Shown in pieces: positions 1,054 through 9,268 of a stretch of DNA of 24,541 bases (the first letter of the stretch is position 1; the number at the start of each line of letters is the position of its first letter). This stretch comes from Candidatus Sigynarchaeum calidifontis. GTDB lineage: Archaea > Asgardarchaeota > Lokiarchaeia > Sigyniarchaeales > Sigyniarchaeaceae. The position numbers and the translations under genes were made by a program. The notes beneath the pieces were generated by a model. That model worked only from the letters and a program-made list of their open reading frames with translations. It was not told where the DNA came from and ran no database searches. Location of the stretch: the NCBI GenBank assembly GCA_030587475.2, contig JAUQYZ020000039.1:1-24541 (forward strand), read 5' to 3'.

Positions 1054-2085
1054 TTATTTGGCTTTTTCAGTTTCTTTATAAAGCTCGTCCAATTTTTTAA
1101 TGGCTCCTTGAAGATCATCTAAAGCTCCTTGTTTTTCCTTTTCTGAGAGCTTGGAGAGATCTATCTGAGGTTCCGTGCCAACGATCCCGGCATCTTTATA
1201 ATAATCCATAATAACTTTGCTGATGCGCTTGTTGTATTCCTCGATAACCCGATTGACATCAGGGTCGTTTTTTATGGCTTGAAAGGATGCATGATTTGCG
1301 AGAGCGTTTAATCCTAAATTCCATTTGAACCACGCTATAGGCTTTTTTTTCCCAAGTTTAAATTCTTCCAATAACTGTTTCATGACGATCCAATCGACTT
1401 TAACCGCATCAACGGATAATGTGTCCGAAAGAATGATGAATTCTGCAACACCTTCATGATCCGCAACAATTCCTGCAATATGACCTTTGATATCATTTAC
1501 AGAGACAATAAAATCCTTACCCGTGATGCTTTGCTGCTTGGGCCACAATTTCCCGAGGGATCCATAGCGCCCGATAAACCGGATGGTAACGATGGACTTG
1601 CCGTCTTCCGACTTGCCTTCGATAGGCACGGTCTTGCCATCACGGAAATGCTTGTGCACTGCCTCTAGCTTGTTGATGATATCGGGTTCCACGTCCACGA
1701 AGATCGACGATCCGAACGCATTTGCCTCGAGCTCCAGCATGCCATGCAAGAATAACTTGTTCCGCTCGATGAATCGAAACATCTGCACGATGCGCTTCTT
1801 CATGACTACCGGATCTTCGGTGTCCATCTTTCCGACCATGAACTTGATGTCCGCGATCTGATCCATCGTGTCCTTGTCGATGATGCCCTGGCTTTGCCTG
1901 TCCTCCAGTGGATCCTGGACGATCATTTCAGTCGGGCTCTTTAAAGCGACGACGGACAGCTCGCCGAACAAGTCAACGTGATCGCCCGTGCCGCTCGCGA
2001 AGAGTGCACGAGGAGGATTACGGAGCAAGATATCTGGAGATGTATGGATGAGTTTCGCTGCAATGTCGTCTTTCTGCTGAGCCAT
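1054..2085 (-). CDS. Hypothetical protein, ~343 aa, with charged helical C-terminus
   Basis: Long ORF (track start GTG 2103). ATG 2085 (MAQQK) is preferred because SD-like GTGGGGT lies ~10 nt upstream. TATA-like TTTTATAT at 2193-2200 on the minus strand. Confidence 0.85.
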   Translation of the reverse strand: MAQQKDDIAAKLIHTSPDILLRNPPRALFASGTGDHVDLFGELSVVALKSPTEMIVQDPLEDRQSQGIIDKDTMDQIADIKFMVGKMDTEDPVVMKKRIVQMFRFIERNKLFLHGMLELEANAFGSSIFVDVEPDIINKLEAVHKHFRDGKTVPIEGKSEDGKSIVTIRFIGRYGSLGKLWPKQQSITGKDFIVSVNDIKGHIAGIVADHEGVAEFIILSDTLSVDAVKVDWIVMKQLLEEFKLGKKKPIAWFKWNLGLNALANHASFQAIKNDPDVNRVIEEYNKRISKVIMDYYKDAGIVGTEPQIDLSKLSEKEKQGALDDLQGAIKKLDELYKETEKAK

Positions 2086-2216
2086 GTAACTTGTTACCCC
2101 CACATCGTTTTTTCTCGAGCATTCTCACGCGATCGGCGAGACAGAGGAGGGGTGGCCGAGCGCGGCTTGTCGAGGTTAATTCTGTCGAATGGATATAAAA
2201 TGCTTTTGAAATCGAG

Positions 2217-2399
2217 TCATGATCGCTTCGTTTTGTACCGCGCGAACAATTTTTCCATCGCTGCGAGGGAAGCGGGACTGGAAGACCGCATGTTCCACAA
2301 GCACCGGGTACAATCCACATCCTTCGGATTCGGGCTCGTTTTCTTGATGCAAGAAAGGTTTTTAACTTTCATATAACATGTGGGTTGCTCCGGCTCCAT
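2217..2399 (-). CDS. Small 4-Cys protein, 60 aa (C8, C17, C30xxC33); putative Zn/Fe-S microprotein
   Basis: Strong SD GGTGAGGA just before the ATG. Own BRE/TATA-like GAAAAACGCTTTTAAT at ~2481-2496 (minus strand). Confidence 0.65.
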   Translation of the reverse strand: MEPEQPTCYMKVKNLSCIKKTSPNPKDVDCTRCLWNMRSSSPASLAAMEKLFARYKTKRS

Positions 2400-2605: not shown

Positions 2606-3970
2606 TCACGCTTGAAGCATTTCCATGAATGCTTCGATGCGGGTCTTATTCTGCTCGATGTTTTCGCCAACATTGTTGAAGCTGGTTTCCAGCACGGGTA
2701 TACCATTCTGGCGCGCTTTTTCCTTGAAGATCTTGAGAACTGGCCCCAGGTTCTTGCATCCGAACGTGCTCTGGAATAGCACGCCCTCGACCCCGATGTC
2801 CTTCGCGACGCGAATAATCGAGTTGGCAAAGGTATCGTTGTTGAAGCCGAGAAACTGGTTCATCCGAAGTAGATGGCGGGCGAAATTGCGTAACACGTCA
2901 CCAGACGTGCTGATGGGTTCCAGGATCCCGAATATCTCCCAATCCGCGAGAATAGCGCGGCCGCCGAGCTTGGAAATGACCTTGATGTTTTCTTGCTCGA
3001 ACCCGGAAAACATGGGAACGTACAAGATTTTCGGACACCGAGACGCGTTGAATCCCTCGCCCCGGGCGATCTTCCCGTTCATCTCGGCGAACAATCGCTT
3101 CAAATTCGATCGGAACGCCTTGAGGTTGGAATTGAAGTCTATCATGCCAAACATCATGAGCGCTTGCACCTCGCTGAACGTGAGGGGATTATAAGGCAGG
3201 ACATCGCCCTTGCAAATGCCGTAGAGGATTTCCTTGTAGATAGCCTTGATCTCGTTCGTGATCCCGATCGTCTCGGCGAGGCGGGCCTCCGAATACGCGT
3301 TCCCCGTGAGCCGCTCGAGCACGACGATGAATTCTTTCAGGTCGGATAGCAGCGTAGCCTCGGCTGCCTTCCCGCTTGTGACGGGAACGTCGAGTATGTA
3401 GTTATTCTTCACGAAGGGCGTTAGGGAGTCGTAATACTTGGCAAAGAATGGGCACCGGTAGGGCACGTTGAAGCTCGCATCGACCACCTTGCTTTGCCGC
3501 AAGTTTGCCGCGTAGAGCATTCTCGAAGCGAAACACGAGTCCACCGGGAACCCGTGTTCCTCCGCGTACTTGGGAAGCTGGCTGTAACGCTCGTTGAGCG
3601 CGCCGATCATGTTATCGCACAAGATGTCGACCACGTCCGCGCCTGCCCGCGTGAAATAGGCAAGCTTGAGGAGATTGTCGATTGCACCCCAGCCGAATAT
3701 TTTCGTGATCTCGGTGATACGGCGCATGAGGACATGCGTCTCTTTATACGTGAAATCCTCGTGACGCACCAGGTTTAATGGTATTGCATCCATTGCAACG
3801 ATGATTTCGGAGAAGGGAAGGGTCACCGAGACGACCTTCTTGCCGGGATATTTGTTCTTGTACATGCTAATGAATTCTTTTCCCGAGAAGAAGGCATGGG
3901 CCATCTTGACGGTCTCCACCGAGTTAAGCAGGCTAAACTTGCCCGATTTCACGTATGGCATAGAAAACAT
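2606..3970 (-). CDS. 2-hydroxyacyl-CoA dehydratase family (HGD-D) subunit, alpha/HgdA-HadB-like
   Basis: Motifs PFSEIIVAMD, AEEHGFPVDSC, YRCP, FGCK and C-terminal TRIEAFMEML. Three conserved [4Fe-4S] Cys. SD GGAGGG within the end of the upstream gene. Confidence 0.85.
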   Translation of the reverse strand: MFSMPYVKSGKFSLLNSVETVKMAHAFFSGKEFISMYKNKYPGKKVVSVTLPFSEIIVAMDAIPLNLVRHEDFTYKETHVLMRRITEITKIFGWGAIDNLLKLAYFTRAGADVVDILCDNMIGALNERYSQLPKYAEEHGFPVDSCFASRMLYAANLRQSKVVDASFNVPYRCPFFAKYYDSLTPFVKNNYILDVPVTSGKAAEATLLSDLKEFIVVLERLTGNAYSEARLAETIGITNEIKAIYKEILYGICKGDVLPYNPLTFSEVQALMMFGMIDFNSNLKAFRSNLKRLFAEMNGKIARGEGFNASRCPKILYVPMFSGFEQENIKVISKLGGRAILADWEIFGILEPISTSGDVLRNFARHLLRMNQFLGFNNDTFANSIIRVAKDIGVEGVLFQSTFGCKNLGPVLKIFKEKARQNGIPVLETSFNNVGENIEQNKTRIEAFMEMLQA

Positions 3971-3972
3971 GC

Positions 3973-5118
3973 TCAGCGCGTCCCTCCTTCCACGAGTTCT
4001 TTGAATGCCTCGATTCTCGTTTTCAAGCCCCCGATACCGGATTGCGAGTAGTCGCGCTCCACATCGAGCACGGGAACGAGTTTCCCGATTTGTTCCTTGA
4101 ATTCAGCTCGCCCTATGGCTTGAAAATCGCAAAATTTTAGCGTGTGGTTTATGATCCCTGTTATATTGCGTTCCTTGACCAATGAAATCGTTTTTTTTAG
4201 CTTGCCATCCATCGCCGCGGGCACGAAGCGCTCCAAGCCTTGACCTTCGAGGTATGCCTTTGCTAATGCATGGTAGATGTCGGGATCTGCCTCGTCGATC
4301 ACGATCTCGCCCATTCGTGCCCCGATCCACGTGTCGTAGTACACGATTTTGGGGCCAAATTCCTCGATCCAGTTGGCGAAAAAATCGTTGACGAATAGCG
4401 GATCGCCGCTGAGCATTATGCCAGGACGCTTACCGCCATCCTTGCAATTCTTTGCCAGAAACTGCTCGTTTTTGAAGTACAACGCGTCGAGCCGCTCGAT
4501 GAGCTCGGCAGGCTCGAGTATTGCTGCCTCCTGGTACCTTTGGAGAAGTTCGGAACCTTGTATTCCCGTATCGGGTAACCGGCGAATCGCCGCACGCGCA
4601 GCGTCGTGTACCTTTACCTGTCGCCGGATCTCGTTCTCAGGTATCTCCGTCCTGAGCGTCCCCGCGAGGTTTTCCGCGAATGCCTTGACTTGATCGGTGA
4701 AGTACGCGACCGAGTACGCGCGTGTCTTAATAGGAATGGCAAGATCGATGGTGGGAAGGTGCAACTCGTGGCTCAAGTATTCCATGCCACAAAAATCGCC
4801 GTTACAATAATTTGACCTCACGAGATACTCGATTTGCTTGTAAAATCGTATTTCCTCGTGCATGAATGCCCCGACAATGTTCCGGGCGAACGTACACGTG
4901 CTGTGGGACATAAGCGATCCACCAGTGGCCGAGTATTCCTCGGGTCCAACGAACACCAACGGTACAACCATCACGCCAGCTGCCCGAACCAGCTCCACGG
5001 GTACCAGCTCGTGCGCGAAGAGACCGACGAACACGCGGCCCGCCTCCTTTTTTTCCATGAAATATTGCGTGTAGGGAAACGGGTCGCTGGCCGGCGTGGT
5101 CAAGATGTCGTCCATCAT
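3973..5118 (-). CDS. 2-hydroxyacyl-CoA dehydratase family (HGD-D) subunit, beta/HgdB-HadC/BcrC-like
   Basis: Motifs VPVELVRAAG, STCTFAR, SNYCNG, LKFCD, ERDYS…LKTRIEAFKE. 2-nt gap to the partner gene. Confidence 0.88.
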   Translation of the reverse strand: MMDDILTTPASDPFPYTQYFMEKKEAGRVFVGLFAHELVPVELVRAAGVMVVPLVFVGPEEYSATGGSLMSHSTCTFARNIVGAFMHEEIRFYKQIEYLVRSNYCNGDFCGMEYLSHELHLPTIDLAIPIKTRAYSVAYFTDQVKAFAENLAGTLRTEIPENEIRRQVKVHDAARAAIRRLPDTGIQGSELLQRYQEAAILEPAELIERLDALYFKNEQFLAKNCKDGGKRPGIMLSGDPLFVNDFFANWIEEFGPKIVYYDTWIGARMGEIVIDEADPDIYHALAKAYLEGQGLERFVPAAMDGKLKKTISLVKERNITGIINHTLKFCDFQAIGRAEFKEQIGKLVPVLDVERDYSQSGIGGLKTRIEAFKELVEGGTR

Positions 5119-5235
5119 CGCATGATCACGTGGTGCTTTCTAAAAATAATTAACGGGCAAGGGCCGCGGACATAATCTTCAAAGACATCTATCGGTTTAT
5201 TAACTCGACGCCCACGTGCACTGCCGTGATGCACC
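5119..5235. promoter_or_regulatory. Divergent promoter region between the dehydratase pair and the marker-16 gene
   Basis: AT boxes at ~5141-5153 and ~5196-5203. CACGTG palindromes at 5127-5132 and 5213-5218. Confidence 0.45.
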
Positions 5236-6519
5236 ATGGGAAAAACGAGAACCATCGCCGAGATTAAAAAGAAGATAAATGCAGGCACTGCCGTGGTGAT
5301 GACAGCGCAAGAGTTCGTGGACACCATCGCGAAAAAGCCAATCGCTTTCGATGATGTCGACGTGGTCACGACCGCGACGAAGGGACTCATGTCCGGGATT
5401 CTCGGCATCTTCACGTTTCGCGTGTCGCCACCGAAGGAACATCGCAAGTTCGTCGAGATTTCGATGAACGGGATACCGGGCTATCCAGGTCCTTGCCCGA
5501 ACGAGTTCCTCGGCGTCGTGGACGTGTTGCTCTATGGCACCGCCCATAGCAAGATCACGGAACATTATTCCGGGGCCGTATTATTCCGGGATCTCGTCGA
5601 GGGGAAAAAAATACACGTGGTCGCGCGTTCAAACCTCGGCAAGGAGATCGAGAAGGATATCACCCTCGATGACATGCAATATGCCCGGTTGCTCGGCACG
5701 AGGCAAGGATTCAAGAATTACAATGCCATGCTAAACCCGACCGCGGAGCCGGTCGACACGATCTTTTCAACCCTCCCCATGCAGCCAAATTATGCCGAGC
5801 TTACCTTCTCCGGTTGCGGGGCGATGAACATGTTCCAAAACGACCCGGAATTCCTCACGCTCGGCGTCGGTTCTCCTTTACTTGTTAACGGCGGAAAGGG
5901 ATACCTGGTCGGTCCTGGAACTAGGAATTATTACTTGAAACCGAACATGATGACAATCGCAGACTTCAAGGGGATGAAACCCGAATACATGGGCGGCTTC
6001 AAGACATCTTTCGGCGTGGAACCCATCTGCTCCATCGCGGCTCCCATCCCGATCCTAAACGAGCGCGTTTTCAAGAACCTCGTTCGATCAGATAATGAGA
6101 TCCCGTTGGCCGTCATGAATGTCGTTGGGCGCGAGAAGGTGGCGGACATAACATACGGGGATGTATGGGGAGACAATTTCGTTGTCAAGTTCGATCCGAA
6201 GAGATGTGACGATTGTACCGATTGCCCGGGTGAAAAACACTGCCCGACAGAGGCGTTTCACAAGAAAAAGGGCATCGACAAGACCCGGTGCTTCAACTGC
6301 GGGTTATGTGCCGTGACTTGCAAGAACGCCCCGCAAGCATTTGATATCGACCTGAAAGGAGCCATCATCAACGGGAAGAAAGTGCCGGTCGTCCTCCGCC
6401 AATCGGACCGCGCTGGTGCAATCAAGCTCGCCACCGAGTTGAAGGGACGGATCCTCAAGGGCGAGTTCGACCTCTGCGAACCATCAGCACCTCTCGAATT
6501 CGCGAAGGAAGTGAAATAG
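5236..6519 (+). CDS. Methanogenesis marker 16 metalloprotein (DUF39/COG1900 family, ComF-like) with C-terminal ferredoxin-like domain
   Basis: RTIAEI…AVVMTAQEF, DVDVVTTAT…MSG, GPCPNE-LGVVD, FKNY, FSGCG, NDP, PEYMGGF. Ferredoxin motifs CDDCTDC…CP and CFNCGLC…C. GPCPNE plus a fused ferredoxin (no CBS pair) matches the marker-16 subfamily. Confidence 0.88.
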   Translation: MGKTRTIAEIKKKINAGTAVVMTAQEFVDTIAKKPIAFDDVDVVTTATKGLMSGILGIFTFRVSPPKEHRKFVEISMNGIPGYPGPCPNEFLGVVDVLLYGTAHSKITEHYSGAVLFRDLVEGKKIHVVARSNLGKEIEKDITLDDMQYARLLGTRQGFKNYNAMLNPTAEPVDTIFSTLPMQPNYAELTFSGCGAMNMFQNDPEFLTLGVGSPLLVNGGKGYLVGPGTRNYYLKPNMMTIADFKGMKPEYMGGFKTSFGVEPICSIAAPIPILNERVFKNLVRSDNEIPLAVMNVVGREKVADITYGDVWGDNFVVKFDPKRCDDCTDCPGEKHCPTEAFHKKKGIDKTRCFNCGLCAVTCKNAPQAFDIDLKGAIINGKKVPVVLRQSDRAGAIKLATELKGRILKGEFDLCEPSAPLEFAKEVK

Positions 6520-6529
6520 CGCATGGATC

Positions 6530-9268
6530 TCATGTTCCCGAAGGTTGCACAAGTTTCTGCGAGAGCTTGAAGGTCAATATCTTCGATTTCGGCACGTCTA
6601 GAAGGATCGACGATGCAATGTCATCCTTCTCGACATCCACGCGGGCGATCACGTTCTCCTCCAGGTCCACCAGTTCAACCATGGTAAACTTGATTCCCAG
6701 CTTGAGCCGGCCTCGGACAGCACTTGTCTTCGATGCGTTGTACAGCCGCAAGATGATGCCATCCGACCCTTCCGCTTGTTTCAAACACGATAACACGAGC
6801 TCGGGCGGATCTAGCTCGATGAAGGAACTGGTCATGAGCAGGAACGGGGACGGCGCGGGGATGTTCGGGAAATAACCTTGGTACTTGTTGTGCGCGCCGC
6901 GGTATTCAGCATGGACCGGATAGCGAAAGCGCATGGCATCACGAAACGCGCTCGGGAAAAGGGAACCATCATGTGGGATGATGCAATATTCCAAATCGAC
7001 CGGGCCTGGTACTTCCGTTAGTTGCACGGTGACCGGGGATGTCTTGTTGATATGCAATCCCCAGCCACGCGTGGACCGGAGCAGCGTGAGACCGATACGC
7101 ACCGTGCCATGCACTTGCTCGGTAGCCTCGTACTCGGGCAAGCCCTTATTCGCGATGAGCAATCCTTTTTTGCCGGGCACGTCCGACACGCTCACGAATC
7201 GATGCTGCATGGCTTGAGCCGTCGGCTTGACGATCCAACGATCACCCGGTGGAAGCTTGACGGGGCGTGTCGTGATGCCAAATGGACCGTCCACGTCCAC
7301 GTGACTCGAAACGATCCCGGTCGGGAAGGTACAACTGATCTTGTGATCACGCGCCTTGTTTTCCACGTGAACCGAGATCTCGACACGCGGATCGTCACCC
7401 GCGTTGACCTTGACGTAAAAAACGATGGGGAGTAGGAGGGAATGGCTCGATCGCCGCGCACGGTGTTCCGCCTCCGCTGGAATGTCCATCTCGATGGATA
7501 CCTTGATCGTGGCCGAGAAACCCGTGTTTTCAACGAGCTCACTTCGGGCGTTTCCCTTGGTGGATGAAATCGGGACATCGCCTTCAATCGGCTGGAACTC
7601 GTAACCGTCGCCGATGTCCGAGATGTCCTCGAAGGCGTTGAGTCCACGGTACATGTTGCCGTTTCTTTTATCGAAAAGATCGATGGTGCCATTTGGATTA
7701 ACATCAACCGAGATTACATCGTTTTCGACATGGCGGCTATCGGCTTTCAGAGACCTTTCCATCTCGATCTCGCGCTCGGTCGCTTTTTTCTGGATTGAAG
7801 GGATCAGGACAAGAGTCGTGTACCCGAGCGCCGGGACCTCCACGGTCTCCACGTGCAACTTGTAGAACCGCTTGGGCCGGTTGCCATGGGATCCAACGAA
7901 TTTCCGCACGAGAAAGATCTCCTCGTTGCCCGTGGGCACGGATTCAAACCTTGATTTCAACGCTTGACCCGATGCGTCCATCAACGTGAACCCGCTCTCC
8001 AAATCGAAATTCACGGGGATAATGAGCGTGACCGGTTCTATGCGAGTAAACTCGAGCGGGTTGAACAAGACGATTTCTACCTGGGAATCATTGATTTTCG
8101 GCACCTTTATCCGGGACGTGATATCGAGGAACGCCCAGTTACGCGTTTCCTCCGCGTTCTGGATGGCCACGTCGAACCGCGTGTCCATCTCTTTCATGAC
8201 CTGGTTCCAGGATGCTGTCCAGGCGCTGTCGTGGGCCTGGTTCTTGAGCAATTCCCGCCATGCTACCGTTAGAAAGCCACGATAATCCATCCCGGTGATG
8301 CTGGTCGAGATCGCCGCCAGGGGCTCGGCATATCGCTCGAGCAAGTCGTGGGCGAGGGCATTCCGCCGCTTGAGGGGCATGCAAGACGAGTACACGCCCT
8401 GGAACGCGCGCTGGTATCTGGCCCCCCGCAGCTCGCCCTCGTAGGCGGGCAAGTCTGGCTTCTCATCGAGCACGCGACGCACGAATTCTTCCATCGTTCC
8501 GAGCTGGAGCGTGCCCTCGTCTTCCGTGATCTCGTCGATTTCATTCCATGCCTTGATCGCTGCTGGAAGCACGTGCTCTGGCAAACGGTGATCATCGCCA
8601 GAGAACAAGAGCGACCATCGCGTTGCTTTCTTGATCTGCTTGATCTGCGCACGTGCGAACACGAGCATGTCGACGGCAAGCTCTGGCTGCTCGGGCAAGC
8701 CGGAGCCCATTCCATACCCACCGATCAAGTGCAGCGCGAGCACGGAAGACCCGTCCGGTGCCTTCCACTCGAATTCGAAGCCGAGACCGTGCTCCTCTTG
8801 CTGGTTCCCCATGCTGCGACCGAACGCCATGGCATTGATGCCGAAGCCGGCGAAGATTTGCGGCATCTGCTCGAAATGGTTGTACTGGTCGGGAATGTAC
8901 CCGACCTTCATTGGCCTCACGCCCCACTCGCGCGAGATGGCATGGCCCACGAGCAAATTGCGGACATACCCTTCCCCGGTTTGAAGCCATGCATCGCTTA
9001 AAACGTAATATGGCCCGATCTGGATCCGCCCCGCCTTGATCAGCGCGCCGAGGCGCCCTCTCATTTCCGGGCGGATCTCGAGATAATCCTCGAGCATGCA
9101 CGTCTGCCCGTCGAGCATGAAGGACGTGAATTCATTATCTGTCTCTAATAAATTAACGAGTTTATCCATCATGGCAACCAAACGAAACCGCATCAGCGAA
9201 AACGGCAAATACCATTCCCGGTCCCAATGCGTATGGGAAATGATAATGTTCTTTTCATCCTTGCCCAT
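6530..9268 (-). CDS. Glycoside hydrolase family 38 alpha-mannosidase (MngB-like), cytoplasmic
   Basis: SHTHWDREWY Zn motif, LDGQT, IQIGPYY…D, GYIPDQYNH nucleophile region, GDDH, NQAHD, LTLLRS. No signal peptide. Confidence 0.95.
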   Translation of the reverse strand: MGKDEKNIIISHTHWDREWYLPFSLMRFRLVAMMDKLVNLLETDNEFTSFMLDGQTCMLEDYLEIRPEMRGRLGALIKAGRIQIGPYYVLSDAWLQTGEGYVRNLLVGHAISREWGVRPMKVGYIPDQYNHFEQMPQIFAGFGINAMAFGRSMGNQQEEHGLGFEFEWKAPDGSSVLALHLIGGYGMGSGLPEQPELAVDMLVFARAQIKQIKKATRWSLLFSGDDHRLPEHVLPAAIKAWNEIDEITEDEGTLQLGTMEEFVRRVLDEKPDLPAYEGELRGARYQRAFQGVYSSCMPLKRRNALAHDLLERYAEPLAAISTSITGMDYRGFLTVAWRELLKNQAHDSAWTASWNQVMKEMDTRFDVAIQNAEETRNWAFLDITSRIKVPKINDSQVEIVLFNPLEFTRIEPVTLIIPVNFDLESGFTLMDASGQALKSRFESVPTGNEEIFLVRKFVGSHGNRPKRFYKLHVETVEVPALGYTTLVLIPSIQKKATEREIEMERSLKADSRHVENDVISVDVNPNGTIDLFDKRNGNMYRGLNAFEDISDIGDGYEFQPIEGDVPISSTKGNARSELVENTGFSATIKVSIEMDIPAEAEHRARRSSHSLLLPIVFYVKVNAGDDPRVEISVHVENKARDHKISCTFPTGIVSSHVDVDGPFGITTRPVKLPPGDRWIVKPTAQAMQHRFVSVSDVPGKKGLLIANKGLPEYEATEQVHGTVRIGLTLLRSTRGWGLHINKTSPVTVQLTEVPGPVDLEYCIIPHDGSLFPSAFRDAMRFRYPVHAEYRGAHNKYQGYFPNIPAPSPFLLMTSSFIELDPPELVLSCLKQAEGSDGIILRLYNASKTSAVRGRLKLGIKFTMVELVDLEENVIARVDVEKDDIASSILLDVPKSKILTFKLSQKLVQPSGT

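Follow-up and report, generated by a model that had tools for sequence, protein, structure and literature searches.

Two groups of described proteins are closest to those encoded at the locus considered here. The first consists of COG1900 proteins, namely MMP16/ComF, of which we take MJ1681 of M. jannaschii to be an example, and the L-ASST enzymes (COG1900a, MA1821-type). The second belongs to the HGD-D superfamily (PF06050) and includes DCCP, an ATP-dependent low-potential reductase scaffold with solved structures (6ENO, 7YYL), and the alpha/beta pairs HadBC (3O3M) and BzdNO (8S02). For the first group, tests of the ComF assignment of MMP16 have been confined to archaea with MCR or ACR, and both C200 and C202 of the M. 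acetivorans MMP16 are dispensable (PMC12068725).

Here, we describe a locus at which genes of these two types lie head to head (Table 1). The window, that is, the whole stretch of DNA that was analysed, is 24,541 nucleotides long. An earlier note, made from the letters alone, gave positions for the ORFs of this locus that proved exact, and took the host to be an Asgard archaeon; the named homologues agree, and Helarchaeota belong to the same class. Our preferred reading, to which we give a probability of about 0.6, is that a ComF-derived reductive aldehyde-to-thiol enzyme stands beside an unrelated, lineage-specific HGD-D pair, the adjacency being synteny within one family.

Table 1. Position of the features discussed in the window
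Feature	Position	Strand	Remarks
Conserved 349-aa ORF (orf349)	1054..2103	-	syntenic with the block
Small four-Cys ORF	2217..2399	-	60 aa; downstream of the HGD-D pair, conserved
HGD-D superfamily subunit, alpha-like (HGDa)	2606..3970	-	454 aa; PF06050, 115 bits
HGD-D superfamily subunit, beta-like	3973..5118	-	381 aa; PF06050, 172 bits
Divergent spacer	5119..5235	.	117 bp; TATA-like stretches by eye, CACGTG twice
MMP16/ComF-type COG1900d protein	5236..6519	+	427 aa; 2x[4Fe-4S] ferredoxin domain, Cys 324-362

The MMP16/ComF-type protein

The product of the plus-strand gene genuinely belongs to the MMP16/ComF clade (COG1900d). It matches the NCBIfam model TIGR03287 (methan_mark_16) over all positions (1-391 of 391); the score is 466 bits and the cut-off 364 (363.95). 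In Pfam it shows a PF01837 match of 288 bits together with Fer4 matches, so that a COG1900 domain and a 2x[4Fe-4S] domain are joined in one chain. It is 44% identical over the full length to MMP16 of Methanosarcina barkeri, and in the alignment all eight of its ferredoxin cysteines (324, 327, 330, 336, 352, 355, 358 and 362) have counterparts in the methanogen proteins.

In both COG1900 trees the protein lies inside the MMP16 clade. In the careful tree, an outgroup of COG1900 proteins (about 31-35% identity; assumed to be of the L-ASST type, COG1900a) is split off by a 100/100 branch, and the clade of the window protein is nested in that of a sister family, with nodes at 99/99 and 98/93. The order-level MMP16 clade is the sister (99/99) of an ACR-positive Helarchaeota copy from a CoM cluster, and the window protein has its place among ComF copies that belong to real CoM clusters. 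The model score and both trees thus agree with the earlier placement in the marker-16 clade and not in the homocysteine (L-ASST) clade.

The COG1900 fold would also fit a redundant enzyme that forms homocysteine by acting on aspartate semialdehyde as L-ASST does, and cross-compensation between L-ASST and MMP16 has been suggested in M. acetivorans (PMC12068725). Such a role is nevertheless very unlikely, because the host genome encodes a separate, typical L-ASST (contig C207; PF01837, 501 bits), to which the window protein is 31% identical; the 100/100 branch in front of the assumed COG1900a outgroup points the same way.

According to the alignment, C95 and C202 of the M. acetivorans protein correspond to C87 and C194 of the window protein, and the position of C200 is taken by S192. 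C200 is a cysteine in just 44% of the methanogen copies sampled and is invariant in the Asgard copies found in a CoM context. In addition, the window protein has a clade-specific cysteine, C265. To judge from these residues, this clade, having lost C200 and gained C265, could catalyse an altered reaction.

By analogy with the characterised methanogen enzymes, the window protein would be a reductive sulfurtransferase that converts an aldehyde group to a thiol with sulfide, the two electrons being supplied by the 2x[4Fe-4S] domain that it carries itself. In its phylogeny it descends from ComF of ACR-bearing Helarchaeota, and it falls in a large subclade that MCR-free Lokiarchaeia have kept.

The HGD-D pair and its linkage to MMP16

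The two adjacent minus-strand genes had been read as a radical dehydratase pair. Both products are indeed PF06050 proteins, but the name holds as a superfamily label only, and the nearest solved relative, DCCP, is no dehydratase. Among solved structures, the beta-like subunit scored best with DCCP (6ENO/7YYL, 76 bits), with 29 bits for HadC and 22 bits for BzdN, and the alpha-like subunit scored 43 bits with DCCP and 24 bits with BzdN. The equivalog models gave the following values: for NF040772 (double_cubane, cut-off 350), 140 bits with the beta-like subunit, the other value for the pair being 74; for HadC, 38 bits (cut-off 700); and for BzdN, 22-28 bits (cut-off 454). Since these scores are far under the cut-offs, the DCCP and HadBC/BzdNO identities were both rejected at the equivalog level. 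Each subunit contains three invariant cysteines (C146, C173 and C405 in the alpha-like subunit; C75, C105 and C330 in the beta-like subunit), a pattern typical of [4Fe-4S] sites in the HGD-D superfamily.

By analogy, the pair would depend on an activator of the BcrAD/BadFG type. No Pfam or NCBIfam match to the activator ATPase (PF01869) was obtained among the 16 larger ORFs of the window, and the window also yielded no CoA-transferase and no 2-hydroxyacid dehydrogenase; activator genes are present elsewhere in the host genome, on contigs C255 (a lone activator) and C175. The small four-Cys ORF is a probable partner of the pair: copies of 42-80% identity follow HGDa at four related loci (L036, L037, L038 and L040), and a gene of 60-63 aa is called at the same place at two others (L130 and L131).

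Close relatives of the beta-like subunit are few (about 20 found, all Asgard). In a scan of 400 genomes, matches to the alpha-like subunit at 79-81% identity occurred solely in the host's family, and elsewhere identity was at most 37%; the 50% identical copy at L040 comes from an assembly outside that scan. We consider the pair to be probably a separate, lineage-specific ATP-activated [4Fe-4S] enzyme, which would work with the four-Cys ORF and with an activator whose gene lies at another place in the genome.

The head-to-head arrangement, with a spacer of 114-211 bp, is kept in at least six genomes of one family, and it persists down to 66% identity for MMP16 and 42-50% for HGD-D. It is set within a larger syntenic block, which also holds a GH38 mannosidase, NTP_transf_3 and orf349; copies of orf349, an ORF for which Pfam, NCBIfam and Atlas searches gave no match, lie near the pair with 54-81% identity at L036, L037, L038 and L040. 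At L040 and L043, the genes downstream of MMP16 differ. Because the arrangement survives both deep divergence and this change of downstream genes, some degree of linkage selection or co-regulation is possible.

Outside this family the arrangement was not encountered. When the contexts of 65 MMP16 loci were compared, the HGD-D pair adjoined MMP16 only in the host's own family, and the divergon was missing from about 58 loci of other Asgard families. Most genomes with the HGD-D pair also have MMP16. The exceptions to linkage include genome G280, which has the pair (73% and 79% identity) without MMP16, assembly GCA_048886965.1, in which the pair and MMP16 are on separate contigs, and the P0404 contig, on which MMP16 is absent from the 5 kb around the pair. 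The earlier note had named a lack of conserved adjacency as grounds for refutation, and this is largely what was observed: the divergon is an arrangement of a single family. The pathway built on it, which joined acyl-CoA radical dehydration to thiolation, is not supported, since the adjacency is family-limited and uncoupled in G280 and GCA_048886965.1.

The 117-bp spacer and both CACGTG motifs described in the earlier note are present; the motifs are poorly conserved. One copy (5127-5132) precedes the HGD-D start by 9 nt and the other (5213-5218) precedes the MMP16 start by 18 nt. Each copy follows an AT-rich, TATA-like stretch (about 5141-5154 and 5196-5204, respectively, assigned by eye alone) and stands between it and the start codon. 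CACGTG is a common motif, with 3401 copies in the genome (1 per 1.47 kb) and 22 in the window. With about 0.08 copies expected per 117 bp, a spacer would hold at least two by chance with a probability of about 0.003, so that some ten spacers of this kind are predicted in a genome. Upstream of genes, the motif showed no real enrichment (0.84/kb, as against 0.67/kb in coding sequence) and no positional peak. Retention is confined to the HGD-side copy in the two closest relatives; the MMP16-side copy is degenerate there, and both copies are missing at L038, L040 and L043. CACGTG was therefore rejected as evidence of a shared operator.

These observations bear on the idea of a single organosulfur module, in which the HGD-D pair and the four-Cys protein would supply or reduce an acyl-CoA or aldehyde precursor, MMP16 would thiolate it and the spacer would co-regulate both sides. 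Such a module would fit the persistence of the close head-to-head arrangement at low identity, the place of both CACGTG copies between a TATA-like stretch and a start codon, and the fact that the pair and MMP16 are both low-potential Fe-S enzymes. We regard it as improbable, however: besides the family-limited adjacency and the uncoupled genomes, HGD-D matches stay at or below 37% outside the family in the 400-genome scan whereas MMP16 is widespread, the syntenic block takes in unrelated genes, GH38 among them, and the CACGTG pair is not conserved. Under the preferred reading, HGD-D stands next to MMP16 through synteny inherited within one family rather than through a common pathway, and we infer that the two function independently.

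Coenzyme M genes and MMP16 in other Asgard archaea

MMP16 scored over the cut-off in about 117 of the 154 genomes of the host's MCR-free order and in 131 of the 400 genomes of the phylum. PGAP already names MMP16 in many Asgard MAGs (put at hundreds), so that the protein in the window is not a unique find. In the literature that we searched, neither MMP16 nor CoM biosynthesis was found to be discussed for Asgard archaea that lack MCR.

As had been stated from the window, no further methanogenesis or CoM gene was seen among the larger ORFs scanned there. The host genome (89% complete) extends this picture: MCR/ACR (MCR_alpha), ComA, ComD and cysteate synthase were all not found, nor was a known CoM-using enzyme; the host is apparently unable to make or use methane. 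MCR was found in none of the 153 other genomes of the order. In the host's family, ComD was found in none of four genomes, and ComA and cysteate synthase were also not found. Canonical CoM synthesis in the host was rejected because ComA, ComD and cysteate synthase are missing, although these absences fall short of proof, given the completeness of the host genome (89%) and of the family members (63-81%).

Other families show different neighbourhoods. At Helarchaeota-type loci, cysteate synthase and ComDE flank MMP16, some of them with HdrCBA directly before it, and these are real CoM clusters. In the large sister family, MMP16 is the first gene of an operon with VOC, a ThDP enzyme and SDR (about 38 of the 65 loci). 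The ThDP enzyme scored 385 bits for acetolactate synthase (cut-off 538) and 316 bits for Xsc (cut-off 620); since both values are below the cut-offs, a reading of this operon centred on sulfoacetaldehyde is speculative. ComD exceeded the cut-off in 78 of 161 genomes of the class, among them genomes of the sister family, which has no MCR; there, ComE adjoins MMP16 in genome G189.

Alternatively, the protein might still act as ComF, making CoM from sulfoacetaldehyde obtained by uptake or by a non-canonical route for a role outside alkane metabolism, for example as a thiol serving Hdr-type enzymes. The score above the equivalog cut-off, the nesting among ComF copies of real CoM clusters, the ComD and ComE genes of MCR-less relatives and the Helarchaeota gene directly after HdrCBA are all consistent with this. 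Against it stand the lack of ComD, ComA and cysteate synthase in the host's family, the lack of any known CoM-using enzyme, the change of C200 to Ser and the new clade-specific cysteine at 265; we consider it possible but clearly less probable than the preferred reading. In the preferred reading, the substrate in the host would be either sulfoacetaldehyde of some other origin or another small aldehyde, since the canonical sulfoacetaldehyde routes are missing.

For the MCR-free Lokiarchaeial MMP16 clade as a whole, the window gene included, we tentatively propose that CoM or a related small thiol may be made for a non-alkane use, such as an Hdr-type substrate. The precursor might come from ComDE, ThDP enzymes or aminotransferases whose genes adjoin it or lie close by in the sister families, and from a new supply route in the family of the window, for which the HGD-D pair is a weak candidate.

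Significance and comparison with known systems

A protein treated as a methanogenesis marker is kept in most genomes of an MCR-less Asgard order, often with ComDE, yet without ComA or cysteate synthase. Its retention points either to a use of CoM that is independent of alkane metabolism or to a thiol product that is new, and either outcome bears on the thiol/disulfide chemistry of the abundant Asgard Hdr complexes. Nor should an annotation as "marker 16" count as evidence of methane metabolism. To this, the HGD-D/MMP16 divergon adds little.

Compared with MMP16/ComF of M. acetivorans (PMC12068725), the window protein has the same COG1900 plus 2x[4Fe-4S] architecture and retains cysteines that correspond to C95 and C202. 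It differs in the residues at the C200 position and at 265, in a host without MCR/ACR or known sulfoacetaldehyde-forming enzymes, and in a gene context unrelated to CoM synthesis. The L-ASST enzymes share the PF01837 fold and presumably the aldehyde-to-thiol chemistry, but they form a separate clade of about 31% identity and have no fused ferredoxin domain. The window protein is nested in the clade that carries the Lokiarchaeial MMP16-VOC-ThDP-SDR operon, whereas in the host's family the partners are not adjacent, and all that the host has is a ThDP enzyme of 42% identity, encoded on a different contig.

For the HGD-D pair, DCCP is the nearest solved relative of both subunits, with a likeness to an ATP-dependent low-potential reductase scaffold. 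The window, in contrast, has a heterodimer-type gene pair with three invariant cysteines per subunit, and one cysteine of the DCCP chain aligns to a Trp in the beta-like subunit. HadBC and BzdNO are PF06050 alpha/beta pairs, as in the window, but their proteins or models match the window pair with only 22-38 bits.

MMP16 and its neighbours in the window

The earlier note described a gene for the methanogenesis marker 16 protein (MMP16, or ComF; COG1900d) divergent from a pair of HGD-D genes, with two CACGTG palindromes in a shared divergent promoter, and proposed either synthesis of CoM or another small thiol in an Asgard archaeon, or a new organosulfur pathway coupling acyl-CoA radical dehydration/reduction to reductive thiolation. 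The gene layout is correct, since the open reading frames, the domain matches (PF06050 for the pair, TIGR03287 for MMP16) and the motif positions agree with it.

Features of the MMP16 and HGD-D region
Feature	Position	Strand	Description
orf349	1054-2103	-	349 aa; 54-81% identity conservation in the same syntenic block; no match in Pfam, NCBIfam or Atlas
60-aa ORF	2217-2399	-	Four conserved Cys (C..C...C..C pattern), PKDV motif; unannotated
HGDa, HGD-D gene	2606-3970	-	454 aa; PF06050, 115 bits; adjoins the HGDb gene
HGDb, HGD-D gene	3973-5118	-	381 aa; PF06050, 172 bits
Spacer between MMP16 gene and HGD-D pair			117 bp; divergent
MMP16 gene	5236-6519	+	427 aa; PF01837, 288 bits, and Fer4 models

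The MMP16 protein aligns end to end with the NCBIfam model TIGR03287 ("methanogenesis marker 16 metalloprotein"), scoring 466 bits (cut-off, 364), and shares 44% identity with Methanosarcina barkeri MMP16 across its whole length. The eight ferredoxin cysteines are all present in it, as are cysteines corresponding to C95 and C202 of M. acetivorans; C200 is replaced by serine, and Cys265 is a new cysteine that marks its subclade. According to PMC12068725, neither C200 nor C202 is needed in vivo.

For the COG1900 phylogeny that had been suggested, a quick version was followed by a careful ML tree, from which the support values are taken. In this tree, a 100/100 branch separates the MMP16 proteins, including that of the window, from a low-identity COG1900 outgroup, which we take to be of the homocysteine-forming L-ASST type; the host also encodes a typical L-ASST on contig C207. 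The window clade (99/89) is nested inside the MMP16 clade of f4, a large sister family of the host's own family f1 (nodes 99/99 and 98/93), and the order-level clade of the host is sister (99/99) to an ACR-positive Helarchaeota-type copy. Both the score and the tree placement bear out the marker-16 assignment.

The HGD-D pair and its adjacency to MMP16

The nearest solved relative of the pair is the double-cubane cluster protein, DCCP (76 and 43 bits); HadC and BzdN rank behind it, and all scores against equivalog models are far below the cut-offs. Each subunit has three invariant cysteines. The subfamily is tiny, with about 20 proteins at an identity of at least 42%, all from Asgard genomes, and a scan of 400 genomes gave no match above 37% identity outside f1. 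The host has six HGD-D loci, on contigs C82, C96, C175, C203, C233 and C255 of its genome (G000): C82 carries a paralogue about 30% identical to the window pair, C175 a four-gene BCR-like set with two BcrAD ATPases, and C255 a lone activator.

To survey gene neighbourhoods, we retrieved 65 Asgard MMP16 loci and grouped the neighbouring genes by clustering. Among these loci, the HGD-D pair adjoins MMP16 only in f1, whose members have source names that include Sigynarchaeota and Sigynarchaeum springense. In f1, the genes belong to a wider block in the order GH38, NTP_transf_3, a 307-aa ORF and MMP16, then divergently HGDb, HGDa and the small four-Cys ORF, with orf349 farther away. The four-Cys ORF always lies downstream of the pair, and the MMP16-bearing side of the block erodes from genome to genome. 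For example, a MobA-like NTP_transf_3 gene directly follows MMP16 in loci L036, L037, L038, L131 and L132; in the window, only 10 bp (6519-6530) separate the MMP16 end from the convergent GH38 gene, and NTP_transf_3 has therefore been lost. In the genome G280, the pair (73% and 79% identity) lies in other surroundings and MMP16 is absent; in GCA_048886965.1, MMP16 is on one contig and the pair on another; and one contig carries two pairs head to head with no MMP16 within 5 kb. The proposed coupling is thus not supported, and the adjacency looks like family-level synteny.

The mirrored CACGTG motifs are indeed present near both starts (5127 and 5213), with an AT-rich TATA-like stretch on one side of each and the start codon on the other, but as a shared signal they are evidence of little weight. 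The 4.99-Mb host genome contains 3401 copies of the motif and the window 22, with neither enrichment nor positioning upstream of genes (0.84 per kb, versus 0.67 per kb in coding sequence). The probability of two copies in 117 bp is about 0.003 per spacer, so that about 10 such spacers are expected per genome. The HGD-side copy is kept only in the two closest relatives, where the other copy is degenerate, and both copies are missing from the spacers of L038, L040 and L043.

MMP16 in Asgard genomes with and without MCR

MCR_alpha, ComA, ComD and cysteate synthase were searched for in the host genome (89% complete) and none was seen, which bears out the non-methanogenic Asgard host proposed earlier. 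Of the 161 genomes of the class scanned, those with MCR_alpha all belong to the Helarchaeota-type families f5 and f7; none was found in the host's order outside the host itself (153 genomes). Cysteate synthase and ComA were each found in 2 of the 161; ComD exceeded its cut-off in 78, mostly f4, and in none of the four f1 genomes. Both ComD and ComE (sulfopyruvate decarboxylase) exceed their cut-offs in many MCR-free genomes, such as G189 (L127:6921-7993). Since these genomes have neither cysteate synthase nor ComA, they appear to encode only the final two steps of CoM synthesis.

In about 38 loci of f4, which come from MCR-free Lokiarchaeia and include L064:4826-9242, L052 and L090, MMP16 heads a co-directional operon that also encodes a VOC/glyoxalase protein, a ThDP enzyme resembling acetolactate synthase, and an SDR. 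This ThDP enzyme reaches no equivalog cut-off (385 bits for acetolactate synthase, cut-off 538; 316 for Xsc, cut-off 620). Among the neighbours in family f3 one finds a class-III aminotransferase, or else a decarboxylase that resembles ComDE but falls short of the cut-off. At the f3 locus L045:7932-11268, the genes after MMP16 encode an omega-type class-III aminotransferase and a VOC protein; an MFS transporter gene adjoins them, and this aminotransferase recurs near the f4 operons. In Helarchaeota, MMP16 belongs to a real CoM cluster, as at L085:231-7907, where cysteate synthase, fused ComDE, HdrC, HdrB and HdrA precede it; here CoM synthesis genes are physically linked to heterodisulfide reductase.

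Of 400 Asgard genomes, 131 have a TIGR03287 match above the cut-off, about 117 of them in the host's order, and PGAP already names the MMP16 protein in many Asgard MAGs. The literature searched contained no discussion of MMP16/CoM retention in MCR-free Lokiarchaeia. These archaea have retained an enzyme derived from ComF, in many cases alongside ComDE.
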